Notes: generated from the sequence alone by a model not told the origin. Numbered from the stretch's first letter, positions 14,234 to 63,067 are shown. The stretch: 64,000 nt of DNA from Rhodoferax sp. (GCA_031418395.1 JANOXL010000242.1:12-64011); one strand, 5' to 3'. Numbers and translations: made by a program.

Positions 14234-14278
14234 GGTCTCGTAATATATTAATATATAGCTACTAATTTTAAGTAAAAT
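14234..14278 (+). repeat. AT-rich GGTCTCGTA-type intergenic repeat, copy A
   Basis: GGTCTCGTAatatattaatatATAGCTActaatttt. Lies between the purB stop and the yaeQ start. Confidence 0.75.
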
Positions 14279-14299
14279 TTGATTAATAAATATAAATAA

Positions 14300-14860
14300 A
14301 TGGCTTTAAAATCTACTATTTTTAAAGCCAATTTGCAGATTGCCGACATCGACAACGGGTATTACGCCGACCACGCGCTCACGCTGGCGCGACACCCGAG
14401 CGAGACCGACGAACGCATGATGGTGCGGCTGGTGGCGCTGGCTTTGCAGGCGCACAAGCTGCAATCTGTCTGTGCGGGCGACGGCGTCTTGGCCTTTGGC
14501 GCGGGCCTCTCCAGCCCGGATGAACCCGATGTGTCGCTGACCGACTTCACAGGCCTCAAACGCCTGTGGATCGAAGTCGGCCAGCCCGAAGACAAGCCGC
14601 TTTTGAAGGCCTGCGGCAAGGCTGACGTGGTGCTGCTGTATTGCTTCAGCGCCGCCGCCGAGGTCTGGTGGAAAAGCATGGAAAACAAGCTCTCTCGACC
14701 GCAAAATTTGAATGTCTGGCGTGTACCCGCTGCGCAGTCGCAGGCGCTGATTCCGATGGCAGCGCGCAGCATGCAGTTGCAGGCGACGATTCAGGAAGGC
14801 ACGCTCATGCTGGGTGATGGCACGCGCAACGTCGATATTGAGCCGTTGCGCTGGAAGTAA
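14300..14860 (+). CDS. yaeQ: YaeQ-family protein
   Basis: MALKSTIFKANLQIADIDNGYYADHALTLARHPSETDERMMVRL matches the conserved YaeQ N-terminus. Confidence 0.85.
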   Translation: MALKSTIFKANLQIADIDNGYYADHALTLARHPSETDERMMVRLVALALQAHKLQSVCAGDGVLAFGAGLSSPDEPDVSLTDFTGLKRLWIEVGQPEDKPLLKACGKADVVLLYCFSAAAEVWWKSMENKLSRPQNLNVWRVPAAQSQALIPMAARSMQLQATIQEGTLMLGDGTRNVDIEPLRWK

Positions 14861-15069
14861 AGCAGCTGGGAGTCTGAGCGACAGCGAAAGACGATAGCGC
14901 AGGGCGAAAGCGCAAGGCGCCGCTCAAAAACAGATCCTCAGTTTAAGGCCAATGCCGAGCCCATCTGGCCAAAGTCTCCGCAAGGCGTCATCACAACTAT
15001 TAACATGGAAGTTAATAGTTGTGGCGAAATAAGCTTCCGCCGAGCACTTAAGACAAAAATCGGCACTCA

Positions 15070-15112
15070 GGTCTCGTATTATATGGATATATTGCTATTA
15101 TATTTATAGCGT
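15070..15112 (+). repeat. AT-rich GGTCTCGTA-type intergenic repeat, copy B
   Basis: GGTCTCGTAttatatggatatATTGCTAttatatttATAGC. Lies in the convergent gap between yaeQ and the DUF1289 gene. Confidence 0.8.
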
Positions 15113-15129
15113 TACAAACCGCGCCTGGC

Positions 15130-15561
15130 TCAGCCCGAGGCCAGGTTTTGAGCCACACGCTCCGCCGCCCGTTCCGCATATTTGTTGAAGCGCCAGGCTG
15201 TGCCATCCATTGTGATACGTCGCCAGGTTTGGCGTTTTTCAGCTGGGCGCATGGCCGTCCAGTGCTGGACTTCTTCAAAACTGCGGCCGCAGCCCTTGCA
15301 GGTGGCATCGCCCTGGCTGGTCGAACAAATCGCAATACAGGGGGTATCGGGCGTGGTCTCGTACCAGGCCAGCCAGGCTGACAGCGCCGTTTTGGGAAAG
15401 GAAAACTCGTCCGCCTCAGTCTCGTGCAAAAACACCATGGTGGCGTAGACTTCGGCGAGCGCGCGCGTTTCGGGCGCGAGTGAAAAACCGTCGGGGGACG
15501 GTTTTTTGTCGCGCCAATAATTGATAGCCGACTCGATGTCAACGATGTGAATGCCAGCCAT
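15130..15561 (-). CDS. DUF3717/DUF1289-type small Cys-cluster protein
   Basis: MAGIHIVDIESAINYWR N-terminal module followed by CIAICSTSQGDATCKGCGRSFEEV (DUF1289-like Cys motif). Start trimmed to MAGIH. Confidence 0.6.
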   Translation of the reverse strand: MAGIHIVDIESAINYWRDKKPSPDGFSLAPETRALAEVYATMVFLHETEADEFSFPKTALSAWLAWYETTPDTPCIAICSTSQGDATCKGCGRSFEEVQHWTAMRPAEKRQTWRRITMDGTAWRFNKYAERAAERVAQNLASG

Positions 15562-15693
15562 GCGTGAGTTGTACGAAGGACGGGCATCATAACGCGCCGG
15601 GCTTTGGGCAGGCCTCAACCAACTTGCAGCCACCAATATCCCTACAGAACCTAGGTTTTTGTGTTTTAAAGGGCTTGTGCTGTAATTCTTTCA

Positions 15694-15854
15694 CGAAGGG
15701 GAGTAGCTCCCTCTTCTTGCTGCACAGGGAGGCATCCAAAAAGGGTGTCGTGGCGAGAAGTATCAACAGGTCGTCATTACGAAGCAACACAACTAGTAGT
15801 GCTTCCGGTCTGTTGGGCACATATCGCATGACTTCATGTCGAGCCAGACCTTCG
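15694..15854 (+). promoter_or_regulatory. yybP-ykoY (Mn2+) riboswitch aptamer
   Basis: 5' CGAAGGGGAGUAGC and 3' GCCAGACCUUCG close a P1 helix. Both carry the hallmark conserved GGGGAGUAG and AGACCUU segments. An internal GGCACAUAU resembles the conserved UUGACAUA. Located in the 5' leader of a TerC-family gene. Confidence 0.7.
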
Positions 15855-15890
15855 ATTGGAGCCCGTATTGGGCCCAGTCGAGGTGTTTTT
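15848..15890 (+). terminator. Riboswitch expression-platform intrinsic terminator
   Basis: ACCUUCGA ... UCGAGGU stem followed by GUUUUU. The 5' arm overlaps the 3' strand of the riboswitch P1, so the two structures are mutually exclusive. Confidence 0.55.
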
Positions 15891-15982
15891 GGCGGCGCTC
15901 AACCACAGGGTTGCGTTGCATCAAAATTCCCTAGACCGGGTTTTCAGCGGGTTGTACGTCGATACAACTAGGAGGCCTCGTC

Positions 15983-16672
15983 ATGGAATTTTTATCTGCA
16001 CCCTGGTGGACAGCACTGCTAGCCATCATTCTCATTGATCTTGTACTCGCTGGCGACAACGCCATCGTCATCGCGCTGGCGGCGCGCAATCTACCAGACA
16101 AATTAAAGAAAAAAGCGATCATCTGGGGCACCGTGGGTGCCATCGTCGTTCGCGCTGTGATGACACTGGGTGTCGTTTGGCTCCTCAAAATCCCCGGCTT
16201 GATGCTGGTCGGCGGCCTTGGCCTGGTTTGGATTGCTTACAAACTACTCGCTGACGAGGGTGGCGAGACGGAACACGGCCCGGTGCAAACCACCTTCTGG
16301 GGCGCGATGAAAACCATTGTGGTGGCCGACGCCCTCATGGGTGTGGACAACGTGCTGGGTGTCGCCGGCGCCGCCAATGGCTCGATGGATCTGGTCATCA
16401 TTGGCCTCTTGATCAGCGTGCCAATCGTGGTGTACGGCAGTTCTATAGTCTTGAAGCTGGTCGAGCGCTTCCCCGTCATCATCCTAATCGGCGCTGCTGT
16501 GTTGGCATTCCCTGCGGCCAAGATGATCGTCAACGAGCCCCTGCTCGACGCGGTGTTTGACCCGCCGGAGCTTTTGAATACCGTCGCCCGGTGGACGACC
16601 TATGCCGTCGCAGTCGCAGGCGTGTTGGCGGCGGGCCGCTGGGCCACCTCCAAACCGTCAAGTATGGCTTAG
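15983..16672 (+). CDS. TerC-family integral membrane protein (putative Mn/metal exporter)
   Basis: LAGDNAIVIALAAR and a second DNVLGV repeat unit. 229 aa polytopic protein. Confidence 0.85.
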   Translation: MEFLSAPWWTALLAIILIDLVLAGDNAIVIALAARNLPDKLKKKAIIWGTVGAIVVRAVMTLGVVWLLKIPGLMLVGGLGLVWIAYKLLADEGGETEHGPVQTTFWGAMKTIVVADALMGVDNVLGVAGAANGSMDLVIIGLLISVPIVVYGSSIVLKLVERFPVIILIGAAVLAFPAAKMIVNEPLLDAVFDPPELLNTVARWTTYAVAVAGVLAAGRWATSKPSSMA

Positions 16673-16790
16673 TACCCGGTGTGGATCGGTTGGCGTCAAA
16701 CTCATGCCGATCCACGCTGATTCACAAGCCCCCCACAAGTTTTTTCTGGTCCCGTTCCTAAAATCTCACTTAACTTCAAAGGAAATCATC

Positions 16791-17249
16791 ATGGACAAAA
16801 TCATTGTTTACATCAACGACGCCGCTTCCGCTTTGGAAAAAATGGCGCCCATGAACAGTCAAACCGAACCGGGTGGAGCGTCTACCCAGTGGATTTTGGT
16901 CGCCTGCCCACCTCGCTTGACCCGTCATGCCAGCAAATGGCTGACTTTCAAGGCGCGCGAAAGTTGGCGCGCCCATTGGTGCACTGAGCTGTTCGCCAAA
17001 GTGACGCCTTCGCTCAAGGTCGGTGGCAATTCTGTGCAGACAATAGTTGCCCAAACACCCCTGGTGGAGATGACGGCGAGCCTTTTGCGTCAACACGGCC
17101 CGGCCCGTGTGATGGACGCGCGCCTGGCCTTGGTGGGGCAGGACTTGGCACCGGTTACGGCGAACCAGCCTGTGGCCAAAGGCAGCCGCTGGACGGTTCC
17201 TGGCGCCCTGGTAGGCTTGGGCACCGTGATGGCGCTGGCCAGCGAATAA
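16791..17249 (+). CDS. Hypothetical protein
   Basis: ATG at 16791 preceded by AAAGGAAA. 152 aa, no recognisable motif, hydrophobic C-terminal tail. Confidence 0.5.
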   Translation: MDKIIVYINDAASALEKMAPMNSQTEPGGASTQWILVACPPRLTRHASKWLTFKARESWRAHWCTELFAKVTPSLKVGGNSVQTIVAQTPLVEMTASLLRQHGPARVMDARLALVGQDLAPVTANQPVAKGSRWTVPGALVGLGTVMALASE

Positions 17250-17307
17250 CAGTGGAATAAGGGCAGTTTGAGGATCAGCGCCACGGTCGCGGCGATAATC
17301 TGCGCCC

Positions 17308-17661
17308 ATGAAACTCATTCTCAAATGGTTGTTAAGCGCCTGCGCCCTGCTGGCAGTTGCCCACTTTTACAGTGGCGTGGAGGTCAAAACTTTCACCGCC
17401 GCGTTGATTGCGGCCTTTGTCATCGCGCTGTTCAACACGTTTTTGCGCCCGCTGCTGATTGTGTTGACCCTGCCGGTGACAGTGGTGACCCTGGGCTTGT
17501 TTATGTTTGTGATCAACGCCCTCATGTTTTGGGCCGCCGCTGGCGTGCTCGACGGCTTTCATGTCAAGGGTTTCGCAGCGGCCCTGGTGGGTTCGCTGCT
17601 CTATTCCCTGGCGGGCATGCTCATTGAGTCAGCGCTCGAGCGCCTGTTCGCGAAGAAGTAG
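17308..17661 (+). CDS. DUF360 / phage-holin-family-4-like membrane protein
   Basis: 117 aa, four TM segments. NTFLRPLLIVLTLPVTVVTLGLFMFVINALMFW is typical of PF04020-type proteins. Confidence 0.75.
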   Translation: MKLILKWLLSACALLAVAHFYSGVEVKTFTAALIAAFVIALFNTFLRPLLIVLTLPVTVVTLGLFMFVINALMFWAAAGVLDGFHVKGFAAALVGSLLYSLAGMLIESALERLFAKK

Positions 17662-19221
17662 CGCCACCTGGCGCGCCCGGCTGTCGATGATGGAAGCCTC
17701 AATGTGATCTGCCACGCCCTGGCGCGCAAGTTCGCGCGCCACTTCCTGGGCCGCCTTGAACCGATCTGTTGCAGCGGCGTAGTCCAAGACAGCGACCTGG
17801 GCTTCCGCATCGGACCGGATAGCGCGTAATCGTTGGCCCAAGGCCGTCTGCGCAGCCGAGAGAAGTTGCCAGGCGTGGGCATCGCGCGGATGATTGGCCA
17901 CCCAAGTTTGCAATGTGTCGGCAGCGTCTTTGGGCCGGCCCGCGCGAAGTGCTATCGTTGCGCCCAGAATCAACTCCGGGCGCCCGGCTTTCGGGCCTTT
18001 CACCAGCGGACTTTTAAGTACAGCGTCATTCGCCGCTAGCGCTGCTGCTGCTTTTGAGCCATTGCCGTCGGTCAAGGCTATTTCTGCTGCAAGCAAGTAG
18101 GCGAGCCTCGCGGCAAACGCATCATTGGCGGTTAACGCCGTCAGTTTCGAGAGGTGCGGCGCACTGGCCGCGAAATCGCGTAATTTCATCGCGGCCAAGG
18201 CAGCGCCATACACAGTGCCGGTCTGGCGATAACGCATTTCAGGCGTGAGCACTGCGGCGGATGGCTCAGGGACACCCGCTGCCAGAGCCGCCCAGGCACG
18301 CAGGGCATCGACGCCAGAATTCGACAACACCTGCGCCCGCGCGCTGACCATGGCGTGCTCCAGGCTACCGATGGCCGAGACGACAGGCACATTGGCCGGC
18401 GGAATCCGCCCCTGCATGTCGGCGATGCGCTCCGTGGTGAGTGGATGGCTGCGCAAATAGGGAAACGCGGCGCTGTCGCTCAAACGACTGGATTGCTGCA
18501 ACTTCTCAAACATCGATACAAAACCGCGCCCGTCAAAGCCCGCCTGCGTCATGATGCCAAAACCCATCCGGTCGGCTTCGCGCTCCATATCGCGCGAAAA
18601 ATTGAGCTGTGATTGCTGCGCCGCCGCCTGACTGCCGACGATGAGCGCATTGGCGGCGTCGGCACTTTTGGACGCTGCCAGCACCCCCAAAATCATCGCG
18701 CCAATGGCCCATGGCGACTGCGCGTTTTGCTTCGAGATAATCCGCGAAATATGCCGCTGCGTGACGTGGCTGAGCTCATGGCCCAGCACCGAGGCCAGTT
18801 CATCCCGATTGCTCACCACCGCCATCAGGCCCAAATGCAGCCCAAAATAACCGCCCGGCAGTGCAAAGGCGTTGACCGAGCGGTCTTTGCCCAGCATGAT
18901 TTCAAAGGCAAAGCGCTCGTCGAGTTCAGGCGCCAAATCTCCGCGCAAGCGCGCCGCCGCCAACAGCGGCTGCCAGATCGCGTTGACATATTCCAGCAAG
19001 ATCGGGTCATCAATGTAGTCCGGGTCGCGGTAGATTTCCCGTGCGATCCGCTCGCCCATGCGCCGCTCGGCGCTGCTGGTCAGCTCACTGTTGTCGCCGA
19101 GATTGGGAAGCGATGAATTAGACGATTGTGCGTACGTATTTGATGATATTATAGTCAAAAATACTACAAATATAAAAGCAATACTAGCTCTAACTACGAG
19201 ACCTGAAAGCCAAGTATTCAT
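17629..19221 (-). CDS. M48-family periplasmic metalloprotease with C-terminal TPR region (BepA-like)
   Basis: Zinc motif HELSHV. The mature N-terminus LPNLGDNSELTSSAERRMGERI resembles BepA. Ala-rich TPR-like C-terminus. The signal peptide is encoded by repeat copy C. Confidence 0.85.
   Translation of the reverse strand: MNTWLSGLVVRASIAFIFVVFLTIISSNTYAQSSNSSLPNLGDNSELTSSAERRMGERIAREIYRDPDYIDDPILLEYVNAIWQPLLAAARLRGDLAPELDERFAFEIMLGKDRSVNAFALPGGYFGLHLGLMAVVSNRDELASVLGHELSHVTQRHISRIISKQNAQSPWAIGAMILGVLAASKSADAANALIVGSQAAAQQSQLNFSRDMEREADRMGFGIMTQAGFDGRGFVSMFEKLQQSSRLSDSAAFPYLRSHPLTTERIADMQGRIPPANVPVVSAIGSLEHAMVSARAQVLSNSGVDALRAWAALAAGVPEPSAAVLTPEMRYRQTGTVYGAALAAMKLRDFAASAPHLSKLTALTANDAFAARLAYLLAAEIALTDGNGSKAAAALAANDAVLKSPLVKGPKAGRPELILGATIALRAGRPKDAADTLQTWVANHPRDAHAWQLLSAAQTALGQRLRAIRSDAEAQVAVLDYAAATDRFKAAQEVARELARQGVADHIEASIIDSRARQVALLLREQALER
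19162..19203 (-). repeat. AT-rich GGTCTCGTA-type repeat, copy C (inside the 5' end of the M48 protease ORF)
   Basis: Minus strand reads GGTCTCGTAgttagagctagtATTGCTtttatatttGTAGTA. Near-identical 3' block to copies B and G. Confidence 0.75.
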
Positions 19222-19234
19222 TGAAATTGATTAA

Positions 19235-20008
19235 TTAGAAAGAATCCAATGGCATGAAGGTCTTGATTTCGGCGGTGACGGGATCCAAAAACACCGTCCA
19301 ATACGATTTACGCCCGAGCATGGGCAAGTAAACCATGCTTGGCCCGACGGCGCCAAACGGGGACAATACCTGGTCGATTTCTGCGGCACGATTTGGAAAC
19401 CGCGTCTTGAGCGCAGCGACGGGTGTGGCTTCTTTAAGCACATCGGGGATTGCCAATTCGTAAGGCTGCCAAAGGTCTGCACGGACCGGTAGCGCCAGGC
19501 CACGGAGCGCCGCAAGAGTCGCCTCTGCCTTTTCGTTTGAATCCTTAAACGGCCGAAGCGAGACAGTCGTCGGGCCAAACAGTGGCATGGCCTTGAGGCC
19601 GGGCGCGGCCTCTTTGAGAAGCTCGGAGGGAACGTCGATGGCGTGGGCCACACCAAAACGGGAATATTCAAACACCAAGTGAACCGGTCGTGCTGCAAAG
19701 ACTGTCCACATGCCGTAAGCCAATGCGCCCAGCTGCAAAGCCGCCACGACGATTAAATCAAAACGCAATTTATTCCTGCCTTTGCCCGGATTGAATATGG
19801 CCAATGTGATCAGAGGCCCCAAAATCACATCCACCGACACCAGCAAAACAAATAACTCGCGTCCACCCGAGATTTCGCGGTAGGGGTAGGGATACCAGAC
19901 AAAAAACACTAAGGTCGCTGCCATTGCTGCAACGAGCAGACTTAAGCCAAGATGGATGCCACTGGCCCGAACGCGCGTGGCCCAAAATGCAGATGAGGTC
20001 AATGCCAT
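19235..20008 (-). CDS. Membrane protein, tentatively TfpX/TfpZ-type type IV pilin accessory protein
   Basis: Four N-terminal TM segments plus an approximately 140-aa soluble domain. Family assignment is from memory of FimB/TfpZ-like architecture and the pilin-locus context. Confidence 0.45.
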   Translation of the reverse strand: MALTSSAFWATRVRASGIHLGLSLLVAAMAATLVFFVWYPYPYREISGGRELFVLLVSVDVILGPLITLAIFNPGKGRNKLRFDLIVVAALQLGALAYGMWTVFAARPVHLVFEYSRFGVAHAIDVPSELLKEAAPGLKAMPLFGPTTVSLRPFKDSNEKAEATLAALRGLALPVRADLWQPYELAIPDVLKEATPVAALKTRFPNRAAEIDQVLSPFGAVGPSMVYLPMLGRKSYWTVFLDPVTAEIKTFMPLDSF

Positions 20009-20112
20009 GGTCGTATGATGCAGGGGTTTTATTCGGGTTCAAAAACGATACCGTCAAGCGACGGTAAAGATTGTCACACTGCGCTGTATCAAATTCAATT
20101 TATAGACTTCAA

Positions 20113-20604
20113 ATGAGCGCCCTTACACATTTTGACGCACGAGGCCAAGCCCATATGGTGGACGTTGGTGCCAAAGCCAATACCCATCGGATTGCCATTG
20201 CGCTAGGGTACATTGCCATGCTGCCAGAAACACTGGCCATTATCGAATCTGGCAGCGCCAAAAAGGGCGATGTATTGGGCATTGCGCGTATCGCAGGCAT
20301 TCAAGCTGCCAAGAAGACCAGTGACTTAATTCCGCTTTGCCACCCGTTGGCGCTTACACGGGTCGCTATAGAATTTAAAGCAGCTCACAAAAACCTCACA
20401 GGAGACAACTCCATTATTTGCCAGGCAACAGTGGAAACCAATGGCCCCACGGGAGTGGAGATGGAGGCGCTAACCGCCGTCAGTGTTGCGTTGCTCACTA
20501 TTTACGACATGTGCAAAGCAGTGGATCGCGGAATGATGATTTCAAGCGTCAAACTCCTGGAGAAACACGGCGGCAAGTCAGGTTCTTTTGTGTCTGCGGC
20601 CTAA
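20113..20604 (+). CDS. moaC: Cyclic pyranopterin monophosphate synthase
   Basis: [29 protein letters not shown] and [24 protein letters not shown] are conserved MoaC blocks. Confidence 0.92.
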
Positions 20605-20661
20605 TGGCCGTCACAGTGTTTGACCGCGCACTTAAAACCCAAAAAACTTACCCTTTGCATA

Positions 20662-22206
20662 TCATTTTCCGTAGGCAGCTTGGTAACGAAGCCGGAAGAA
20701 TTTTGCTTCGTCGACCCTTCCCAGCATTTCCGAAGTGGTAATTAGCCTTTCGACCACTCGTGCTTCAGGGGAGAAATGTAACAACGCGTGGGCCTGGGCA
20801 TTGAAATAGGCGGCATTTACGGGCGTCAATTGCGCGGTGGTCAACTCGGCAAACCGAAACTGGTTCTGGAAAAACCAGGTGTTACGTATTTTTTCAAGGG
20901 TGTTCGTTTTGTAGGCTTGAGCCCTTTGAGATGGCGGCAAGTAGATTTGGCTAACCTTGTAATAGTCCCAAGCGACGGCTGCCAAAGCCATCATCAATAC
21001 AATCGCTGAGGCTCGAATCACATGTGTCAATCGCATCCCACCCAGCAGAAGGGTGCTACCGACGCGAGGTTCGCCTGCCATTTTGTTGGGCGCAGAGACC
21101 TTGGTCTCTTGCGATGTCGTGAACAAAATCATGAGACACATCACAGTGGCGATCTGAAATGGTCCATACCAAAGCGGGTACTCGACCAAGCTGTGTAACC
21201 CAATCATCGCCAGGACACCCCACGCAAGCTGACGCTGAGGATGATTCTCGCGCCAGGGATGCAAGCGCTTCAGTACCCACAGAACCCCGCCGCAAAAAAG
21301 AAGTGATACCGGTATTCCAAGCTCCACCGCGAGATGCAGCGGCAAATTGTGCGCATTGTCCAAAATTTCACAAAATCTTGGGCCGTCATATAGCGTTATG
21401 AAGTGTGCGTAGTCCAGTTCACCCCATCCCCAACCAAACCAAGGTTTCAAGAGCACTAAGTGCAGTACGTTTTGCCACAAAACAATACGGCTAGAGCAAT
21501 TGTGCTCAGTGTCGGCCAAACGCCCAAAAATGCCCCCAAACGCCCCGTCTCGACTAACCAACACTGGCAAAAGAACGCTAGCTACCACGTAGGTCAACCA
21601 AGCGGTAGTCACCACTTGCACAACGGAGCGGTCGCGCCAGTTGCGCCAAGCCAGCATCAGGCCGCCGACTAAAAGTAGCTGTACAAGCCCGGTTCGGGAA
21701 GATGACGCCGCGTTGCCTAAGCCGAGTGTCCCGGCTGACGCCAACCCTCCCCAAAACCACATCATTCTCTGTTGATCATCTAAATTGTCGCGAGAAAATT
21801 TCGGGTTAGCCTTTGCCCTTGCCAGCCAAATTATTGCAACCAGGCCGATCATGGTCAGCGTTGCAAATTGATTGCGTTGGCGCAGATTGGCAAAAGCTTC
21901 ACCAATTTGGGTCGTATTGATGAACCCCGCCGCGAGCTTGCTATATCCGAAAAACTGGATTAGAGCGATTCCACAACTGGCAAGTGCAGCCAACCACCAG
22001 GCAGTGGCAAGCGTTTCAACAGCTCTAGTTTTAGTGGATTCCAAGCTTTGAAAGCTGAAACTACACACAAAAAGTAGGCCAGCGAAACACATCCAGCTAA
22101 CCAAAAGGGGCGTAGCAGCCGGAGCAGGGCCGGTCGCAGCAGGATTTAGCCACGGCAGAGTCAGCAATACTAGTGCAGCGCCCGCAATCATTTGGCACCG
22201 ACGCAC
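20662..22206 (-). CDS. O-antigen-ligase/PglL-family polytopic membrane protein (candidate protein O-oligosaccharyltransferase), paralog 2
   Basis: 514 aa, more than 10 TM segments. Wzy_C-like loop (NAHNLPLHLAVELGIP). Soluble C-terminal domain. Adjacent to pilA. Confidence 0.7.
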   Translation of the reverse strand: MRRCQMIAGAALVLLTLPWLNPAATGPAPAATPLLVSWMCFAGLLFVCSFSFQSLESTKTRAVETLATAWWLAALASCGIALIQFFGYSKLAAGFINTTQIGEAFANLRQRNQFATLTMIGLVAIIWLARAKANPKFSRDNLDDQQRMMWFWGGLASAGTLGLGNAASSSRTGLVQLLLVGGLMLAWRNWRDRSVVQVVTTAWLTYVVASVLLPVLVSRDGAFGGIFGRLADTEHNCSSRIVLWQNVLHLVLLKPWFGWGWGELDYAHFITLYDGPRFCEILDNAHNLPLHLAVELGIPVSLLFCGGVLWVLKRLHPWRENHPQRQLAWGVLAMIGLHSLVEYPLWYGPFQIATVMCLMILFTTSQETKVSAPNKMAGEPRVGSTLLLGGMRLTHVIRASAIVLMMALAAVAWDYYKVSQIYLPPSQRAQAYKTNTLEKIRNTWFFQNQFRFAELTTAQLTPVNAAYFNAQAHALLHFSPEARVVERLITTSEMLGRVDEAKFFRLRYQAAYGK

Positions 22207-22236
22207 TTTGCTTCAGTCAACTTTGGGGCAATTGAT

Positions 22237-23931
22237 TCACGGCGCTTTTGCTGGCCATGGCACGATTGCCATCTGCGGACTAGTGATCGCCGCCTTTTGC
22301 CAACGCAGTGCCATAGACCCGCAAAGTTTTTCATTGGTAACCGAGCACATGACCTCAAGCCAGACTGCTGCTTCTTTAGGCTGCCCACTCATCGCCAAAT
22401 TCGCCGCGAGTTTGTAGAACGAAAGGACACTAGGAATTGCAATTACCAAACCGCGCATCCAATTCAACTCTTCTTCTGTTACGTCTTTGCTTGGCCTGTT
22501 CCGGGCCAAGACAATGACATCCCGCAATTGAGTCAAGACGACAACATCAGGCGCGGTTTTTGGATAGTTACTGGGAATTCCCCGGTCTTCAAAGCGCAAA
22601 CCATAGAAGCTATTTTCCGCCTTGAAATAGTCACTGATCGTGACAGTCATTGCCAACCCCGCAGACACCAGAACTGCACCATTGACCCAGCTTTTCACCA
22701 AAAAAGCCGGCCTAAAGCCGAGACTAGTGTTGAGCACGCCCAACAGAAGGCCCGCGGGAAGCAATAAGTGAGCGTAATGCAAGGGAAATTCCAGCATCGA
22801 ATGGACGCCAAGAATCAACATTGCAGCCATTATGGCGAATTGGTCAAACTGAATTGCCAATTTTCCGGCCTGCCAAATCCACCAACCCAAAAATCCAACA
22901 ATCGCCAGCCCAATCGGATAACCATTCCAAAGAATCAAGTCCAGCACCATATTGTGAGACTGCGCAAATATTCCTCCTGCTGGTGGGTAACTCGCAACCA
23001 ACATAAAGTGGGCTTGCGAAATTTGCCCCCAGCCAAACCCGAACCAGGGCTGACGTGACGCGGCCTCCAGAAACATGATCCAAGCTGTTGTTCGTGCAGG
23101 GTCGTTTAGTCCTCTAAATTGAGAGGGAAGGTCGTCCGGGAAGAACAAAATCAGGTCGATATACGGTATTGTGATTGAGACGATCACGAAGTAAGCGGCT
23201 AATCCCAACGCTACTTTCAGGAAATGCGGGCTGTACAACTTATTCCGCAGCAAAATTAGCCCTGTCGCCAACAAGAATATATTGAGCCAAGCCGTTCGTG
23301 ACCCCGTCAAGGCGACTCCAAACAAGACAATGGCAGCCAGCGCGGCTGCCACCCATGCCGTAAGATTTTGACGAAAATGTGCCCATGCAGTCCCGATAAC
23401 ACCGAGCAACAAGAGTGACCCAAGTACGTTCGGTTGGGTAAGATTTGCATAATACCGATTTGGTAAAGTGCTGCTCAATATCCAAATGGTGTCGGATCTA
23501 AACCCTAACCACTGGAAGATCTGTAAACCCGTTGACACAACTGCAGCACAAGTAAATGCCATAAAAACAAAATCTGCACACTGGCCTGGAGAATCAAGTT
23601 CCCATTTGGCGCCGACCTGAATGGCAAGTGCAAACCCGAGCAAATACAGGCTGTGCATCCAGACCATACCAAACTGAGTTGATTGTCCGCACAAAAACTG
23701 CACTATTGGAATGGCGCTCAGGCCAAAAATCAGTAAGGCCAACCAATGCAGAGGATGCGGCGCAGTTTGCCTCAGTAGGACTCGTGCCGAAACCAGCAAC
23801 AGAACACATGCCACCCAAGCTTCTTTATGAAAAGACAACCAAGGTGGGGAATTGTTGGGCAATAACCAGCCCAACGACAAGATCACAGCCCCCAGCATTA
23901 GCCACAACGGTGTAAATACCTTGATCTGCAT
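22237..23931 (-). CDS. O-antigen-ligase/PglL-family polytopic membrane protein (candidate pilin O-glycosyltransferase), paralog 1
   Basis: 564 aa. N-terminal LGWLLPNNSPPWLSFHKE and loop AQSHNMVLDLILWNGYPIG are typical of the PglL/PilO class. Immediately downstream of pilA. Confidence 0.7.
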   Translation of the reverse strand: MQIKVFTPLWLMLGAVILSLGWLLPNNSPPWLSFHKEAWVACVLLLVSARVLLRQTAPHPLHWLALLIFGLSAIPIVQFLCGQSTQFGMVWMHSLYLLGFALAIQVGAKWELDSPGQCADFVFMAFTCAAVVSTGLQIFQWLGFRSDTIWILSSTLPNRYYANLTQPNVLGSLLLLGVIGTAWAHFRQNLTAWVAAALAAIVLFGVALTGSRTAWLNIFLLATGLILLRNKLYSPHFLKVALGLAAYFVIVSITIPYIDLILFFPDDLPSQFRGLNDPARTTAWIMFLEAASRQPWFGFGWGQISQAHFMLVASYPPAGGIFAQSHNMVLDLILWNGYPIGLAIVGFLGWWIWQAGKLAIQFDQFAIMAAMLILGVHSMLEFPLHYAHLLLPAGLLLGVLNTSLGFRPAFLVKSWVNGAVLVSAGLAMTVTISDYFKAENSFYGLRFEDRGIPSNYPKTAPDVVVLTQLRDVIVLARNRPSKDVTEEELNWMRGLVIAIPSVLSFYKLAANLAMSGQPKEAAVWLEVMCSVTNEKLCGSMALRWQKAAITSPQMAIVPWPAKAP

Positions 23932-23957
23932 TCTTTCAACCTCTTTGACTTCAACTC

Positions 23958-23986
23958 AAAAAAAAAGGGAGCCAAGCTCCCTTTTT
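23958..23986 (-). terminator. Intrinsic terminator after pilA (bidirectional form)
   Basis: A9-GGGAGC-caa-GCTCCC-T5. On the minus strand the stem is followed by a T9 run. Confidence 0.8.
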
Positions 23987-24002
23987 CGTCATGGTGAATT
24001 GC

Positions 24003-24413
24003 TTATTTGCAGGAAGAAGGCGCCCATTTGGGGTTAACCGAACCCACACATGTCCAACCCGAAATACCGTTTCCAGAAATCGTGGGGGTCAAGGTAACAA
24101 TGAAGTCATTGGCAGCAAGAATAAGTCCGTTAACAGTGACAATTCCAGTCGTCGCGCCCACAGTCAAAGCTGTTGCACGTGAAGTCGGAACAAAACCGGT
24201 CGCACAAGTGTCAAGCGAATTTGCGCCATTTGTCGACACCGCCTCAGTCACACAAGTGCGCGCACCGCTGGCGGCCAAAATTACCTCAGAGGCCTTGGCG
24301 CGGTTGGTGTAATCCTGATAGGCTGGCAAAGCAACTGCAGCCAAAATACCAATGATCGCCACAACGATCATCAACTCGATAAGGGTGAAACCCTTTTGCA
24401 TAGAACGCTTCAT
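24003..24413 (-). CDS. pilA: Type IV major pilin
   Basis: Prepilin leader MKRSMQKG / [28 protein letters not shown]-terminal Cys pair. Confidence 0.93.
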
Positions 24414-24456
24414 TAAAAACTCCTTGGTGAAAAAAGAAAGACTGACAACTTAATAT

Positions 24457-35370: not shown

Positions 35371-35563
35371 AGCGGTCTCCGGGCAGTCTTTTGTTATATT
35401 TCGCTACAATAATAGTAGCGTTTTACGCTTTAAACCCGGGGCTTGCAGCTTGTTTTTTCTTAAATCAAGGCGCAAATCTCGGACTCGCAGTGTAACTGCG
35501 GCCCAGGTGCGTCTGATTAAGTGATTTTGCGTACCGCCCGTTGGACGGCACAGCGCCTGATGT

Positions 35564-38863: not shown

Positions 38864-38906
38864 TTGCTATATTTATTATAGCTTTATCGTCAATAAGTAC
38901 GAGACC
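38864..38906 (-). repeat. AT-rich GGTCTCGTA-type intergenic repeat, copy D
   Basis: Minus strand reads GGTCTCGTActtattgacgataaAGCTAtaataaatATAGC. Lies in the convergent gap between argC and recX. Confidence 0.8.
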
Positions 38907-39124
38907 CAGGACCTTAATTTTATCTAAACCAGAGTTTCAGCGTCTTTCTTAAGGCAGATAAACCCCAATTTGGGTATGATTGACGTCCCGAGTTCAAAAT
39001 CAAACGCCTTGAACCGCTTCCAAGTCACCCCCGGGGCGCACCCACGGCAGGAGTGCCCGGGCGGCCAGAAGCCAGCGCGGCGCAATGAGGCGTAACGAGG
39101 TTGACACTCGAATTCCAAATGGCG

Positions 39125-39687: not shown

Positions 39688-39729
39688 TTACAATTATTTA
39701 ATAGCTAAATATTGAATATTAATGAGACC
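39688..39729 (-). repeat. AT-rich GGTCTC-type intergenic repeat, copy E (diverged)
   Basis: Minus strand reads attaGGTCTCATTaatattcaatatTTAGCTAttaaataattgtaa, colinear with copy A. Lies between recA and recX. Confidence 0.65.
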
Positions 39730-39756
39730 TAATATTCTAATTTTATTCATAAACAA

Positions 39757-44725: not shown

Positions 44726-44727
44726 GA

Positions 44728-52493: not shown

Positions 52494-52529
52494 ACTTATT
52501 TATCCACAGCTTCATGCGGTAACCAGGTT

Positions 52530-52572
52530 TGCTATTATTTATATAGCTAATTATGATTATTCCACGAGACCC
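52530..52572 (-). repeat. AT-rich GGTCTCGTA-type intergenic repeat, copy F
   Basis: Minus strand reads GGGTCTCGTGgaataatcataattAGCTAtataaataATAGCA. Lies in the convergent gap between the PEP-CTERM gene and fdsA. Confidence 0.8.
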
Positions 52573-52655
52573 AGAGGTCGAAAAGGCGAATATTTCAGAA
52601 TTTAGGCCCGGGACTCAGCCATAATTAACATGGGTATTAATTATGATTTTGTCCA

Positions 52656-57190: not shown

Positions 57191-57208
57191 GTCGAACTTA
57201 GATGGGAC

Positions 57209-58456
57209 TTAGATAACTTTTTCGGCGCGAAGCTCAGCGATGTAGGCCGCGTCAAAGCCCAATTGGCTCAGCACCTCGTCGGTGTGTTCCCCCAGCAGAG
57301 GCGAGCGGGTCACCTCGGTGGGGCTGTCGGAGAGTTTGATGGGGTTACCCACCGTGAGGTATTTGCCGCGCGTGGGGTGATCAACCTCCACCACAGTGCC
57401 GGTGGCGCGCAGTGAAGGTTCTTCAGCGATCTCTTTCATCGAGAGAATCGGGCCGCAGGGAATGTCGTATTGATTGAGGATGTCCATGGCCTCAAACTTG
57501 GTCTTGGTTTTGGTCCATTCCTCGATGCGCGCGAAGATCATCTTCAAGTGAGGCAACCTGGCCTGGGGCGTGGCGTAGTGCGGGTTGGTGATCCAGTCTT
57601 CCTCGTCAATCACCTTGCATATGGCCGGCCACACGCCCGCCTGCGTGATGAAGTAAATGTAAGCATTCGGGTCTTTTTGCCAGCCCTTGCACTTGAGGAT
57701 GGAGCCTGGCTGGCCGCCCCCTGAGGAGTTGCCTGCGCGCGGCACAGCCTCGCCAAATTCGATCTCGGGAAACTGCGGGTACTCTTGCAGCACGCCAGTG
57801 CGCTCCAAGCGCTGCTGGTCACGCAGCTTGACACGGCACAAATTGAGCACCGCGTCCTGCATGGGCGCCAGCACTTTTTGTCCGCGATTCGTCGTGTTGC
57901 GCTGGTAGAGTGCCGCCACAATGCCCAGCGCCAGATGCAGGCCGGTGCCGCTGTCGCCAATCTGCGCGCCGGTGACCATCGGCAAGCCGTCGTCCAGACC
58001 GGTCGTGGACGCCGCACCGCCCGCACATTGGGCTACGTTTTCGTAAACCTTGCATAGCTCGTAGGGGCCCGGGCCGAAGCCCTTGACCGAGGCCACCACC
58101 ATGCGCGGGTTGATCGCCTGGATGTGCTCCCAGGTGATGCCCATGCGGTCTAACGCGCCGGGCGCGAAGTTTTCGACCATCACGTCGCATTGTTTGATCA
58201 GGGCGTCCAGCACCTCGCGACCTTTGGGTTTTTTGGTGTCCAGCGTGATGGAGCGTTTGTTGTGGTTCAACATCGTGAAATACAGGCTATCGACGCCGGG
58301 GATGTCGCGCAGTTGTCCGCGTGTTGCATCGCCCACGCCGGCGCGTTCCACTTTGATCACGTCCGCACCCAGCCAGGCCAGCAACTGTGTGCAGGTGGGA
58401 CCGGACTGCACATGCGTGAAGTCCAGAATCTTCACGCCGTCCAGGGCTTTGCTCAC
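57209..58456 (-). CDS. Formyl-CoA:oxalate CoA-transferase paralog (YfdW-like, 415 aa)
   Basis: [50 protein letters not shown]. Family III CoA-transferase. Confidence 0.88.
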
Positions 58457-58458
58457 GC

Positions 58459-58914
58459 CTATTCCCCTTGTGCAGGTGTTGGCGGTTCTGCCCGCCTGGT
58501 TTCGGCCTCGTTCAGGCGTTTACGCAGCTCGCGTTCTTCTTTGAAGCGTGCCGTTTCGTCACGAACTACCGCTGCAATGCCGCTCACCGAACCATCGGGT
58601 GCATGCAGCAACGACACCGTGAACGCAATCGACAAACTACGCCCGTCCTTGTGTGCCGCAGGCACCTTGAGCAGGTCATGGCCGTATTTGGTCACGCCCG
58701 TTTTCATGGTCTGGTGGTAACCGTCCCAATGGCGCTGCTGCTGACGCTCTGGAATGATCATGTCCAGCGACTGGCCCAGCGCCTCGCCCTCGGTAAAACC
58801 AAACATGCGCTCACAGGCGGGGTTCCACAGCGTGATCAGGCCGCTGGCGTCACACACCATCACGGCATCGCTGATTGCCGTGACCAGTGCTTTCATATCC
58901 ACAGCGGTTTGCAT
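58459..58914 (-). CDS. Stand-alone PAS-domain protein
   Basis: 151 aa. [38 protein letters not shown] ... IAAVVRDET is PAS fold. No output domain. Confidence 0.75.
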
Positions 58915-58926
58915 GGTGGGCCTTTC

Positions 58927-58987
58927 ATTCCATTTCTAAATCATTCGTGCAGGTCGTTGGGCTACACAAACGATTTAGAAATGGAAT
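58927..58987. repeat. Long inverted repeat (16-bp perfect arms, extendable to about 23 bp) just upstream of the PAS gene
   Basis: ATTCCATTTCTAAATC (58927-58942) and GATTTAGAAATGGAAT (58972-58987). On the minus strand the 3' arm abuts the GAAAGG Shine-Dalgarno sequence of the PAS ORF. Confidence 0.7.
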
Positions 58988-59005
58988 TTATTGTCAAACT
59001 CTCAT

Positions 59006-59039
59006 ACAAAGACGGCGCTCAAAAGTGAACGCCGTCTTT
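59006..59039 (-). terminator. GC-rich stem-loop after frc (no clear U-tract)
   Basis: CAAAGACGGCG-12 nt-CGCCGTCTTTG, an 11-bp perfect stem about 60 nt after the frc stop. Confidence 0.45.
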
Positions 59040-59100
59040 GCCGCTCCCAGGCCACGCTCAGGTGAAGCTCAAGCCAGGATCCATTGTCAAAGCCGTGGTG

Positions 59101-60372
59101 TCAAACAGCGCCGACTTTGTGCATGTCGGCAATCTGACCGGCAGAATAGCCCAACTCGGCCAACACGGAATCGGTGTGTTCGCCCAGCAAAGGCGAGGCG
59201 GTTACTTCCGGCTTGGTGTCGGAGAACTTGATCGGGCTGCCCACGGTAAAGTAGCTGCCGCGCACTTTGTGCGGCACTTCGACGATAGAGCCGCTGGCGC
59301 GCAGCGACTTGTCGTGCAGCAGTTCTTTCATCGACAACACCGGAGCGCAAGGAATGTCGAATTTGCGGAAGATGTCGACCGCTTCGAACTTGGTTTTGTC
59401 CGAGATGAATTTTTCGATGGTGGCGAAGATGTCCATGATGTGCGGCTGGCGACCACGCGGCGTGTTGTACGCCGGGTCGTCCTTCCACTCGGGCTTGCCC
59501 AGCGCGTCGCAAATCGGACCCCAGGCGTGGCCCTGGATGGTGAAATAGATGTAGGCGTTGGGGTCGGTCTCCCAGCCCTTGCACTTCAAGATCCAGCCTG
59601 GCTGGCCACCGCCACCGGCGTTGGCACCGCGCGGCACCACACCGTCTTTGAAGGCGTCCATCTCGTGCGGGTACTGGGGATACTCTTCCAGGTAGCCGAT
59701 TTTGTCCAGGCGCAACTGGTCGCGCATCTTCACGCGGCACAAATTCAGCACCGAGTCTTGCATCGACACGGCGACTTTTTGGCCCTTGCCGGTCTTTTGT
59801 TTGCCGATGTAGGCTGTCAGGATGCCGATGGCCAGGTGCATGCCGGTATTGCTGTCGCCCAAAGCGGCGGACGAAATCGTCGGGCCCGAGTTCTCACCTT
59901 TCCAGTAACCGGTGGTGGAGGCTGCGCCGCCTGCGCACTGCGCCACGTTTTCGTAAACCTTCAGGTCTTCGTTGTGGTGGCCGTCGCTGAATCCTTTGAC
60001 CGAGGCCAGGATCATCGCGGGGTTAAGCGACTGGATGTGCTCCCAGGTGAAACCCATGCGGTCAAGTGCGCCGGGGCCGAAGTTCTCGACCATCACGTCG
60101 CACTCCTTGATCAACTTCTCCAGCACAGCCTTGCCTTCTGCTTTTTTGGTGTCGAGCGTCAGCGAACGTTTGTTGCTGTTGAGCATCGTGAAATACAGCG
60201 CATCGGCATCGGGGATGTCACGCAATTGGCTGCGGGTGACGTCGCCGGAGCCAGGGCGCTCGACCTTGATCACGTCGGCGCCGAACCAGGCCAGCATCTG
60301 GGTGCAGGCGGGGCCGGCTTGCACGTGGGTAAAGTCGATGATCTTGATTCCATCAAGGGGTTTGGTTGACAT
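59101..60372 (-). CDS. frc: Formyl-CoA transferase (Frc-type, 423 aa)
   Basis: [67 protein letters not shown] and [22 protein letters not shown] closely track Oxalobacter Frc as I recall it. Confidence 0.9.
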
Positions 60373-60458
60373 CTTGTTTTCTCCTTAGGGATGACGCGGG
60401 TTGATCTTTAGAGGGGGTTGATTGCGTTTTGCACTTCACCCCACAGTTTATTTCGAGT

Positions 60459-62192
60459 TTATTTTTTCTTCGCCGCGCTTTGCGGATTCAAGCTCGTGAT
60501 GCGACCGCTTTCAGTGCCTGCGGTCTCGTCAATGATGGCGTTGATGAGGGTCGGCTTGCCCGATGCAACCGCTTCTGACAAGGCTTTCTCCAGCTCGGCA
60601 GGGGTAGTTGCCGCTACACCCACGCCACCAAAGGCCTGCATCATAAGCTCATACCGCGCGTTCTTGACGAACACTGTCGGCGCCACATCGGCGCCACCGC
60701 CCAGGTTCACATCCGTGCCGCGGTAGATGCCATTGTTGTTGAACACAATCACACAAACGGGCAGGTTGTAGCGGCAAATCGTCTCGACCTCCATGCCGCT
60801 GAAACCAAAGGCGCTGTCGCCTTCGATGGCGATGACCGGTTTGCCGGTGACCACGGCAGCCGCCACGGCGAAGCCCATACCGATGCCCATAATGCCCCAG
60901 GTGCCGACATCCAGGCGTTTGCGTGGCTCGTACATATCAACGATGCTGCGGGCGAAGTCCAGCGTGTTGGCGCCTTCGTTGACGACGATCGCGTCAGGCC
61001 GCGCCTTGACAGCGTTGCGAATGACGTTCAGTGCGCTGTGGTAGTTCATCGGCGAGGGGTTCAGCGCCAGGGTCTCGGCCATTTTGGCCAGGTTCTTGAT
61101 GCGCCGCTCGGAGACTGCGCCGGTCCAGTCCGCCGGAGGTTTGGCCCAATTGCTGCCCATGCCCGCCAGCAAGGCGGCGACGCAAGAGCCGATATCACCC
61201 ACCACAGGTGCGGCGATCGGCACATTGCTGTCCATCTCGGTGGGGGAAATATCGATCTGGATGAATTGGCGGCTGGCGGCTTTGTCACCACCCCAGGTTT
61301 TGCCTTTGCCGTGCGAGAGCAGCCAGTTCAGGCGCGCGCCGACCAGCATGACCACGTCGGCCTCGGCCAGTACGTAAGAGCGTGCAGCAGACGCGGATTG
61401 CTCATGGGTGTCGGGCAAGAGGCCTTTGGCCATGGACATCGGCAAATACGGGATGCCGCTTTTCTCGACCAACGCGCGGATGTCGGCGTCGGCCTGGGCG
61501 TAGGCGGCGCCTTTGCCCAGCAGAATCAAGGGGCGCTTGGCGGTCTTGAGCAAATCCAGCGCGCGTTGCACAGCGTCTGGCGCAGGAATTTGGCGCGGCG
61601 CGGCATCGACCACTTTAATCAATGACTTGCGGCCTTCTTCAGCACCCATCACCTGAGAGAACAATTTAGCGGGCAAATCCAGGTACACGCCGCCTGGGCG
61701 ACCCGACAAGGCCGAGCGAATCGCCCGCGCGATACCGACACCGATGTCCTGCGCGTGCAAGACGCGAAACGCGGCTTTGCAATGCGGCCGGGCAATGGCC
61801 AATTGGTCCATTTCTTCGTAGTCACCCTGCTGCAAATCGACGATCTCGCGCTCGCTGGAGCCGCTGATCAAAATCATCGGGAAGCAGTTGGTGGTGGCAT
61901 TGGCCAGCGCGGTCAGCCCGTTCAAAAAACCAGGCGCCGATACGGTGAGGCAAATGCCGGGCTTTTGGGTCAGAAAACCCGCTGCCGCTGCGGCGTTGCC
62001 TGCGTGTTGCTCATGGCGAAACGAGATCACGCGCATGCCCTGGCCCTGCATTTTGCGGGTCAAGTCGGTGATCGGGATGCCCGGCAGACCGTAGACGGTG
62101 TCGATGCCGTTGAGTTTCAGGGCGTCGATCACCAGGTGAAAACCGTCGGTCTGGGGGGCGTTGGAGGTATCTGGGGTGGTGTCAGTGGTCAT
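60459..62192 (-). CDS. oxc: Oxalyl-CoA decarboxylase (ThDP-dependent)
   Basis: [26 protein letters not shown]. ThDP motif [31 protein letters not shown]. Start set at MTTDT (577 aa). Confidence 0.9.
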
Positions 62193-62262
62193 GGTGAATT
62201 TCCGACGCGGCAAGGGACTGCGCACAGTGGCGTTATCATAGGAATCGATTCGGACATCCCCC

Positions 62263-62276
62263 TTGACCCCGGTCAA
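62263..62276. promoter_or_regulatory. FNR/CRP-family-type palindrome TTGAC-CCCG-GTCAA
   Basis: Perfect 5-4-5 palindrome, one base per half-site from the FNR consensus TTGAT-N4-ATCAA. Centred in the divergent oxc/crp-family intergenic region. Confidence 0.5.
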
Positions 62277-62340
62277 TTTTCATTGAATCAAATGCTGAGT
62301 CTTACGCATTAGAAGCTGCTTGTCGCGCTGCAAAGCCCCT

Positions 62341-62949
62341 ATGTCCACCGTTGAATCCCACGCCGAACGCAACGTCATCCGGGTGCAACTCACCCAAAAC
62401 CTGGTATTGAAGGACCTGACCGACGACGAACGCGCGGCGCTGGAGCGCCTGCTTACGGTGGTCGATTGCGGCAAGGGCGACTCGCTCTTGCATCAGGGCG
62501 TGACCGACATGGAGCAGTATTTCGTGCTCGACGGCGTGCTCAAACGGGTCGTTGCCAACCCGCAGGGCAAAGAGATGATTTTGCGTTTTGCCGACGCGCG
62601 CGATATGGAGACGAGTTACGCTGCCTGGCGCCTGGGCACGCCCACGCCGTACAGCATCGTGGCGGTCACCAAAACACGGGTAGCCAAACTACCACTGCCG
62701 CAGTGGGTGGCGTTTATGGAGCAACACCCGTCGATCAAAGCGTCGTTTGAATATGCCGTGATGCGCCTGATGAGCGAGATCATGGCGCACACCATCACGC
62801 TGCATCTCCTGGACGCGTCAGGGCGCGTGAACCGTTTTATGCGCAAACACCCGGAGTTGGCCGAGCGGATTCCCAAAAAAGAGCTGGCAGCTTATTTGAA
62901 TTTGTCGGCTGAAACATTGAGCCGACTCAAGCAGCGCGGGAAGATTTGA
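62341..62949 (+). CDS. Crp/Fnr-family transcriptional regulator
   Basis: cNMP-binding-like beta-roll (LLHQGVTDMEQYFVLDGVLKRVV) and a C-terminal HTH (KKELAAYLNLSAETLSRLKQRG). No N-terminal FNR Cys cluster. Confidence 0.8.
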   Translation: MSTVESHAERNVIRVQLTQNLVLKDLTDDERAALERLLTVVDCGKGDSLLHQGVTDMEQYFVLDGVLKRVVANPQGKEMILRFADARDMETSYAAWRLGTPTPYSIVAVTKTRVAKLPLPQWVAFMEQHPSIKASFEYAVMRLMSEIMAHTITLHLLDASGRVNRFMRKHPELAERIPKKELAAYLNLSAETLSRLKQRGKI

Positions 62950-63024
62950 GGCTCTTACTGAGGCCTCAAATTGCTTGTTTATTTCGAATTTTAGACAATA
63001 AATTGAGTGATTTAATTGCATTAT

Positions 63025-63067
63025 TACTACCAAATAGTATAGCAATAACGCCATTAAATACGAGACT
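63025..63067 (-). repeat. AT-rich GGTCTCGTA-type intergenic repeat, copy G
   Basis: Minus strand reads GAGTCTCGTAtttaatggcgttATTGCTAtactatttgGTAGTA. Lies in the convergent gap between the crp-family gene and tctA. Confidence 0.8.

Follow-up and report, generated by a model that had tools for sequence, protein, structure and literature searches.

AT-rich repeats in a 64-kb stretch of a Rhodoferax genome and their probable place in a dispersed repeat family of the Comamonadaceae

What kind of element is the short AT-rich repeat that recurs along a 64,000-nt stretch of DNA from Rhodoferax sp. (GCA_031418395.1, JANOXL010000242.1:12-64011; the whole stretch is called the window below)? A sequence-only reading of this window had described a family of seven copies of about 42 bp, confined to the 3′ ends of genes. 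The repeat is not a new class of gene-end signal, and the description of the family is corrected and extended here. In view of the many copies, their full, short and decayed forms, their occurrence in both orientations and in frame within genes, their presence or absence at given sites and their decay, we regard the repeats, with a probability of roughly 0.6, as a lineage-specific AT-rich dialect of a dispersed repeat family of the REP/ERIC/RPE kind that extends across the Comamonadaceae.

The repeat family and its full unit

The existence of a genuine repeat family, claimed in the sequence-only reading, was borne out by further copies elsewhere and by a non-circular profile of 24 copies, all from other genomes, which was searched against the window and matched copies A to F (Table 1). 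Copy G, the weakest member, remained unmatched by this profile up to E = 10; it keeps the 8-mer and ATTGCTA at the correct spacing, and reaches E = 4.5e-5 once it is among the profile seeds. The pattern GTCTC-N18-GCT has 7 matches in the window, compared with 1.37 expected, and none of 100 shuffles reached 7. Both this pattern and GGTCTCGTA (at most one mismatch) match exactly the seven sites originally listed, at the positions given, except that box 1 of copy F starts at 52571 and not at 52572. The fixed spacing was also confirmed, as were the terminal palindromes (GCTAT-N7-ATAGC in B, D and F, and TACTA-N5-TAGTA in G). An eighth, GC-richer copy had been overlooked; it was found by nhmmer with a profile of GC-rich copies (E = 1e-3), and its GCTAC/GTAGC is a C-G variant of the terminal hairpin. 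The density in the window is therefore 8 copies per 64 kb, and about one copy per 8 kb would mean, by extrapolation, several hundred per genome.

Table 1. Copies of the repeat in the window, related features in other loci, and genes of the low-GC stretch (E-values from the profile of 24 copies from other genomes; L numbers denote fetched loci)
Feature	Coordinates	Strand	Form and location	Parts	E-value
Copy A	14220..14275	+	short form, without upstream palindrome; purB>yaeQ tandem gap, co-oriented	pre-box TTGGCAccccatta; box 1 GGTCTCGTA 14234-14242; box 2 ATAGCTA 14255-14261; degenerate box 3 AAGTAA 14270-14275	5e-6
Copy B	14992..15112	+	full unit; convergent gap, yaeQ / DUF3717/DUF1289 gene	13-bp-stem palindrome 14992-15023; 46-nt linker; box 1 15070-15078; ATTGCTA; hairpin GCTAT-N7-ATAGC 15094-15110	5e-15
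Copy C	19162..19213	-	short form; inside M48/BepA-like protease ORF 17629-19221 (-); signal peptide MNTWLSGLVVRASIAFIFVVFLTIISSNTYA/QSS	TTGGCTttca; box 1 19195-19203; ATTGCTT; GTAGTA	7.7e-3
Eighth copy	35400-35477	-	intermediate GC; tandem gap upstream of TerC-family gene, co-oriented	tttaagaaaaaacaagctgcaagccccgggtttaaagcgtaaaac GCTAC-tattatt-GTAGC	
Copy D	38865..38977	-	full unit; convergent gap, argC / recX	type-2 palindrome ATACCCAAATTGGGGT 38962-38977; linker; box 1 38898-38906; AAAGCTAT-N7-ATAGCA 38865-38882	2e-13
Copy E	39688..39743	-	short and decayed; recA>recX tandem gap, co-oriented	box 1 GGTCTCATT 39721-39729; TTAGCTA; TTGTAA	5.5e-3
Copy F	52530..52645	-	full unit; convergent gap, PEP-CTERM protein gene / formate dehydrogenase alpha	type-1 palindrome CATAATTAAT-ACCC-ATGTTAATTATG 52620-52645; linker; GACC-tctg-GGTCTCGTG (box 1 52563-52571); TTAGCTAT-N7-ATAGCA 52530-52547	3e-14
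Copy G	63025..63067	-	short form; convergent gap, CRP-like gene / tctA	AGTCTCGTA 63059-63067; ATTGCTA 63040-63046; GGTAGTA 63025-63031	
Element-like DNA in moaC	L045 6752-6768; L049 5001-5066; L084 7800-7866; L086 11654-11720; L104 11770-11834	reverse			
gcuE cassette loci	L122 3930-4200; L123 2930-3200; L124 9686-19800				
TfpX/TfpZ accessory gene	19235-20008		low-GC stretch		
Two PglL/Wzy_C-type O-oligosaccharyl ligase genes	20662-22206; 22237-23931		low-GC stretch		
Type IV pilin gene	24003-24413		low-GC stretch		

A scan of one genome per species with the pattern GGTCTCGT-N16-GCTA-N8-ATAGC, which catches only three of the eight window copies, gave at least 39 loci; among the matches listed, 25 came from six "Rhodoferax sp." metagenome-assembled genomes (MAGs), with 15 from one MAG. 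Two of the pattern matches, in an ABC ATPase gene (L035) and at the MutL motif AINSIADCAISTRP (L041), are native coding sequence and thus false positives, and two others within open reading frames (ORFs; L011 and L027) are probably chance matches of the same kind. The recA gene of the window is identical to that of GCA_031373715.1 and to that of an ENA assembly. Copy F, used as an AT-rich query, had no match in the plasmid collection, and the viral contigs yielded one chance match to the AT-rich pattern and two matches to the canonical (GC-rich) one.

The proposed unit length of 42 bp proved too short, since the full units B, D and F span approximately 115-120 nt; copies A, C, E and G are short or degenerate. 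In an alignment of about 40 copies, homology starts approximately 70 nt upstream of box 1, at a short AT-flanked palindrome. This left module is an AT-rich palindrome of 6-13 bp, which occurs as (i) type 1, TTAACA-TGGG/CCCA-TGTTAA, with the loop either way round, (ii) type 2, TACCCA-AAT-TGGGTA, and (iii) in a single copy, GAACC-cac-GGTTC; its outer stem bases covary, up to 13 bp, as exemplified by window copy B. It is followed by an A-tract, a GC-richer patch, TTnAAG and the right module, composed of GGCC-N4-GGTCTCGTR, 12 AT-rich bases and WWWGCTAT-N7-ATAGCA. The linker between the palindrome and box 1 measures 69-70 nt in the full window units and is almost free in sequence. Every left palindrome in the fetched loci has box 1 at a distance of 59-71 nt, mostly 69-71 nt, with 59-60 nt in L007 and L033; no left palindromes were found elsewhere in the window.

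The aligned copies have no terminal inverted repeats, the left palindrome and the right end ATAGCA being unrelated. The flanks of 22 full copies revealed no shared target-site duplication, in a comparison that included no empty site from a close strain. Every copy is a single unit without inverted neighbours, and no alternating clusters were found.

The repeats differ between close strains. Near-identical genomes share 95-96% identity with the window over 1.3-1.4 kb around copies D and E. Within this region copy E of the window has lost the conserved GGC and CGT, while L001 and L002 keep the more canonical cGGCAtttaGGTCTCGTT, and in L001 a cluster of four changes affects the pre-box and box 1 region of copy D. 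Another orthologous pair, L007 1413-1563 and L029b (L029 6400-6640), has near-identical end modules and flanks of about 90-100% identity, whereas the linker is almost unalignable and differs in length by 10 nt, a pattern suggesting that copies exchange sequence or that this segment changes unusually fast.

Relatives in other genera, in genes and in integron cassettes

Relatives were sampled in 80 metagenome loci encoding YaeQ at 72-82% identity. A GC-richer homologue lies directly 3′ of the yaeQ stop codon (the position of window copy B) in at least 13 of these loci, within the purB-yaeQ gap (copy A) in 8-9, and at the tfpZ-M48 junction (copy C) in several; many of the other loci have no element at these junctions, so that its presence varies. 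The loci closest to the window have the GC-rich short form, GGGC-TCTA-GCCCCCGTA...GCAGCTAT-N7-ATAGC, with which the AT-rich dialect can be aligned base by base. The GC-rich hairpin form reads TTCAAGCC-N5-GGCCTC-CAGCGCTTG-N5-CAAGCGCTG-GCAGCTAT-N7-ATAG. Its 10-bp stem covaries: in 11 hand-picked sequences 94.5% of the cells are paired and 4 of the 10 pairs are compensatory, a level that none of 500 shuffles attained. With a profile of GC-rich copies, window copy F is matched at 7e-6, and the E-values of other AT-rich copies are as low as 2e-7. Judged from these alignments, the window repeats are homologous to the GC-richer repeat of many Comamonadaceae. Copies resemble each other more within a clade than between orthologous sites. 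The first stem position of the canonical copies varies between L084, L086 and L103 on the one hand and L104 and L123 on the other (CTAG/CCAG opposite CTGG), which we take to be the change expected from very-short-patch repair acting on CTAG.

Some copies lie inside coding sequence. Copy C had been placed in a tfpZ>M48 tandem gap, but it is in fact part of the coding sequence of the BepA/M48-type protease, where the element is translated as the signal peptide MNTWLSGLVVRASIAFIFVVFLTIISSNTYA/QSSNSSLPNLGD. In M48 orthologues from other genera (L049, L063, L045, L084, L086 and L104) the signal peptide is also encoded by the repeat, with a GC-rich element at the same place and in the same frame (e.g. 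LGKKRRLALASQALVASLLIAIGVASPLPAHA/Q); orthologues without element-like DNA have unrelated signal peptides. Automatic start choice can trim this signal peptide, and our own gene caller put the start at 19059. The moaC gene of several Comamonadaceae contains element-like DNA in reverse orientation (Table 1). AT-rich copies, likewise reversed and in frame, were detected in (i) the variable linker of a YgiQ radical-SAM protein gene (L016 2330-2450; AINNIANNVDSTRP...NPNWVS), where the segment is kept in close homologues and absent from others (P0033, P0068), and (ii) an acyl-CoA-synthetase-like gene (L034, about 1130-1225; KAINSVANNLNNTRPTTS). Copies of the repeat yield false small ORFs, distort start-codon calls, as in the M48 protease, and insert peptides into proteins.

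The canonical repeat is also found on plasmids. A blastn search with a canonical chromosomal copy matched 87 plasmid records at 80-90% identity over 55-62 nt, almost all of them under the annotation "DUF1010 domain-containing protein" in class 1 integrons. The two plasmid records that were read contain the gcuE cassette, an ORF-less unit of about 262-270 bp with its own attC and with the repeat in its 5′ half. In pKPN5 this cassette lies between aadB and a YciI-like cassette, with cmlA5 next, and in the second record between aacA4 and blaOXA-10. Within the cassette the repeat precedes the true attC (GTCTAAC...GTTAGCC) and is a separate sequence from it. Conceptual translations of the cassettes score 94-114 bits on Pfam PF06231 (DUF1010, 'orfE'), and the first ~18 of the 66 profile positions correspond to the translated canonical GC-rich repeat (TTTCAAGCCTTTTTGGCCTCCAGCGCTTG..CAAGCGCT..CAGCTAT). 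DUF1010 is probably not a real protein family, and very likely a false small ORF created by the repeat. The cassette homologues are named DUF1010, GcuE15, OrfE-like or Orf81, and the named ones derive mostly from Comamonadaceae (Diaphorobacter, Ottowia, Acidovorax, Comamonas, Alicycliphilus, Hydrogenophaga and Rhodoferax); a chromosomal array of Ottowia oryzae holds at least 26 gcuE cassettes, with dispersed copies of the element nearby. The presence of a Comamonadaceae repeat in the cassette that adjoins aadB, aacA4, blaOXA-10 and cmlA5 in clinical class 1 integrons points to the Comamonadaceae as the source of that cassette.

The window repeat therefore has a relative on record. Where the sequence-only reading recognised no known consensus, it was right in that no Rfam, attC or dif match exists; its GC-rich homologue, however, was already recorded as DUF1010/gcuE. 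The two differ in that the cassette has extra sequence and an attC, whereas the AT-rich window copies share only the repeat part of ~65 nt and lack an attC. The sole window translation scanned, that of the M48 ORF with copy C, gave no DUF1010 match. In the literature on DUF1010, gcuE and the sequence strings we found only mentions of an unknown ORF or cassette, and no description of the repeat.

Gene context and the possible origin of the repeat

The gaps between the genes of the window comprise 11 divergent, 12 convergent and 26 tandem ones, which hold 0, 4 and 4 copies, respectively, with the eighth copy included; the absence from divergent gaps and the four copies in convergent gaps agree with the counts made previously. 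We examined a larger sample of ~25 copies in related Rhodoferax MAGs, using a codon-usage gene caller trained on the loci, which is crude, although the decisive cases score high. Among the intergenic copies of this sample, 10 lie in convergent gaps, 8 in tandem gaps co-oriented with transcription, 4 in tandem gaps in antisense orientation (L010, L017, L026 and L036b) and 3 in divergent gaps (L039, L029a and L009), against background numbers of 32 (convergent), 31 (divergent) and 94 (tandem). Convergent gaps are modestly over-represented (chi-square calculated by hand, p ~0.03-0.05), the orientation in tandem gaps (8 versus 4) is not significant, and promoter regions are mildly avoided. The proposed confinement to 3′ ends thus fails in related genomes, and co-orientation cannot carry the weight that had been laid on it: because antisense tandem copies and divergent-gap copies exist, the three of three co-oriented tandem copies are a small-sample effect, and the mild convergent-gap excess is all that remains.

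The window segment 19235-24413 is low in GC (about 50%, compared with 57-60% elsewhere); from its genes (Table 1), it looks like a variable pilin-glycosylation locus.

Of the three roles suggested in the sequence-only reading, that of a small non-autonomous mobile element fits best. We propose that copies of the repeat would be spread, and would be held similar to one another in a given genome, by a process acting on DNA; the putative agent, which would recognise the conserved end modules, is gene conversion and/or a trans-acting activity. Copies then decay, and they persist where the harm is small, i.e. between convergent genes, 3′ of stop codons and occasionally in frame in tolerant coding regions; transcript effects such as 3′ stem-loops may be a by-product. 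Several observations weigh against this proposal. No transposase, terminal inverted repeats or target-site duplication was found, so that mobility is a property that we infer. Members of the family occupy the same three junctions (purB-yaeQ, the 3′ end of yaeQ and tfpZ-M48) in the genera with YaeQ of 72-82% identity, and such recurrence of a purely selfish element needs hot spots, gene conversion or selection. A purely selfish model also leaves the lineage-wide dialect shift unexplained. The combination of conserved end modules and spacing with a linker that is almost unalignable even between orthologous copies also fits a two-site protein target, and the gene context depends on our own crude gene caller.

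The conserved ends and helical spacing, the shift in dialect and the repeated use of the same junctions keep alive an unlikely alternative, namely that the copies are host-maintained sites for a DNA-binding protein (nucleoid-associated, insulator-like or a domesticated recombinase) that marks gene ends. Such a protein might conceivably read the dyad GCTAT-N7-ATAGC together with both box 1 and the left palindrome, all on the same helical face, and co-evolution with it could, at similarly long odds, account for the lineage-wide shift in sequence. It would explain why the sequence of the terminal dyad itself, beyond mere pairing, is kept across genera, why the spacing between palindrome and box 1 is 69-70 nt or one helical turn less (59-60 nt) despite the free linker, why the loop of the left palindrome occurs in both orientations, as expected of a symmetric duplex site, and why the copies of this clade all have GGTCTCGTR where sister genera have GCCCCCGTA or the GC hairpin, even at orthologous junctions. 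It fits less well with the loss of conserved bases between near-identical strains, the missing left module of short copies and the copies in coding regions and integron cassettes; moreover, no candidate protein was identified, and the 59-60 nt class comprises only two related copies. A sharper version, less likely still, holds that a clade-specific DNA-binding or recombination protein co-evolved with its sites, the element being its phase-locked, two-site target. If this were true, it would explain both the switch from GCCCCCGTA or the GC hairpin to GGTCTCGTR and the retention at the same junctions across genera, and the same module would have seeded the gcuE/DUF1010 cassettes that are now in clinical class 1 integrons.

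A role at the RNA level, as a 3′-UTR (untranslated region) module that stabilises mRNA 3′ ends, acts as a weak terminator or gives rise to a 3′-derived small RNA, is suggested by the position of all eight window copies 3′ of a co-oriented stop codon (A, C and E at 28-32 nt), and by folding: shuffled sequences fold less well than the full copy B and the canonical copy of L104 (z = -4.3 and -4.6), the canonical middle hairpin shows the covariation described above, most of its non-Watson-Crick pairs are G.U when the forward strand is read, and the pre-box GGCC/GGTC can pair only with G.U. However, copy B gives an equally good fold on its reverse strand (z = -4.4), neither strand of D or F reaches significance, and the counts of G.U versus A.C in the terminal hairpin are without strand bias. 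In the AT-rich dialect the GC hairpin has been lost, there is no U-tract, and RNAalifold finds only an invariant, ascertainment-biased 5-bp hairpin. Pairing of linker and pre-box was not significant in permutations (best p = 0.03 among 12 tests), the linker does not covary, and Rfam gave no match. Since antisense and divergent-gap copies exist and no strand-specific structural signal was found, we consider an RNA role improbable. Far more improbable is a site for site-specific recombination, be it attC-like, dif/IMEX-like or the attachment site of an integrative element. The type-1 palindrome TTAAC...GTTAA superficially resembles attC R′′/R′ cores or XerD arms, and the canonical form does occur in integron cassettes, but there it is separate from the true attC and upstream of it; the TTAAC/GTTAA arms are separated by only 4-6 nt and lack L boxes and a 6-bp central region, and the neighbours of the window copies are housekeeping genes (purB, recA, argC, fdh) rather than an integrase or a cassette array.

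With its change of dialect and its constant spacing, the family is suited to the question of how small repeats that have no transposase remain similar in one genome.

Comparison with known signals and repeat classes

Neither the window nor 12 loci carrying GC-rich copies gave an Rfam match, and around copy B a search with E up to 10 returned only noise (E about 7-9). No tRNA or tmRNA genes are present in the window. The view that the repeat is not an intrinsic terminator was upheld, given that the AT-rich copies have no GC stem with a U-tract; a terminator scan of 12-21 kb found none at A, B or C, and the window copies form AT-rich stems of 5-13 bp with no T-run. Sigma-70, sigma-54 and extracytoplasmic function (ECF) promoters were rejected by eye on both strands (hexamers unconserved or spacing wrong), and the single match of a promoter scanner, at copy A, is not common to the other copies. 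Of the sites of IHF, Fis, parS, dif/XerD arms and OxyR/LysR-type T-N11-A, compared by eye with their consensus sequences, only T-N11-A fits the dyad, and trivially so.

The BRE repeat of ~90 bp (Hot et al. 2011, PMC3110155) occurs in the beta-proteobacterial genus Bordetella and in Comamonadaceae, with some copies within ORFs. It differs from the present repeat in its unrelated sequence (TTTTTTTGGCCGCGGGCCGCCCAAGGCAAAAAAGCCCCC...), its GC content of 69% and its frequent tandem arrangement, and the BRE sequences given there resemble neither dialect. The two do share the purB-yaeQ gap as a site in several metagenome loci, and different small repeats have landed in this gap. BRE-matching DNA, in reverse orientation, was observed in the purB-yaeQ gap of L051, L055, L056, L068, L094, L095, L097 and L102.

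The repeat lacks the defining features of miniature inverted-repeat transposable elements (it has no terminal inverted repeats), classical REPs, attC, dif, intrinsic terminators and every Rfam family. No autonomous insertion sequence with matching ends was found in 45 kb-scale loci or in scans of the viral collection. Compared with the REP/BIME elements of gamma-proteobacteria, it has no GT[AG]G 5′ of the palindrome in alignments of 24-40 copies (GTAG occurs only as a 3′-arm variant, in C and G), the window copies are AT-rich rather than GC-rich, and they are single units instead of alternating clusters. No RAYT (Y1 transposase) gene was seen in the window or in the fetched loci, and no whole source genome was searched. 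The likeness to REP/BIME consists in (i) short, high-copy and mostly extragenic units, (ii) small palindromes with a mosaic of alternative modules, (iii) sequence dialects specific to a clade, (iv) occurrence in both orientations, with enrichment between convergent genes, and (v) a palindromic core, with the terminal dyad GCTAT-N7-ATAGC kept across dialects and a covarying canonical 10-bp hairpin. The RPE (Rickettsia palindromic elements), ERIC/IRU and Correia elements have no sequence similarity to the repeat and belong to other bacterial families, and ERIC and Correia differ further, the window unit being neither a single long imperfect palindrome nor bounded by terminal inverted repeats. 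They are nevertheless comparable in being non-autonomous, gene-less units of 100-150 nt in intergenic DNA, and with RPE the repeat shares in-frame insertion in protein genes, here in the M48 signal peptide, moaC and the YgiQ linker.

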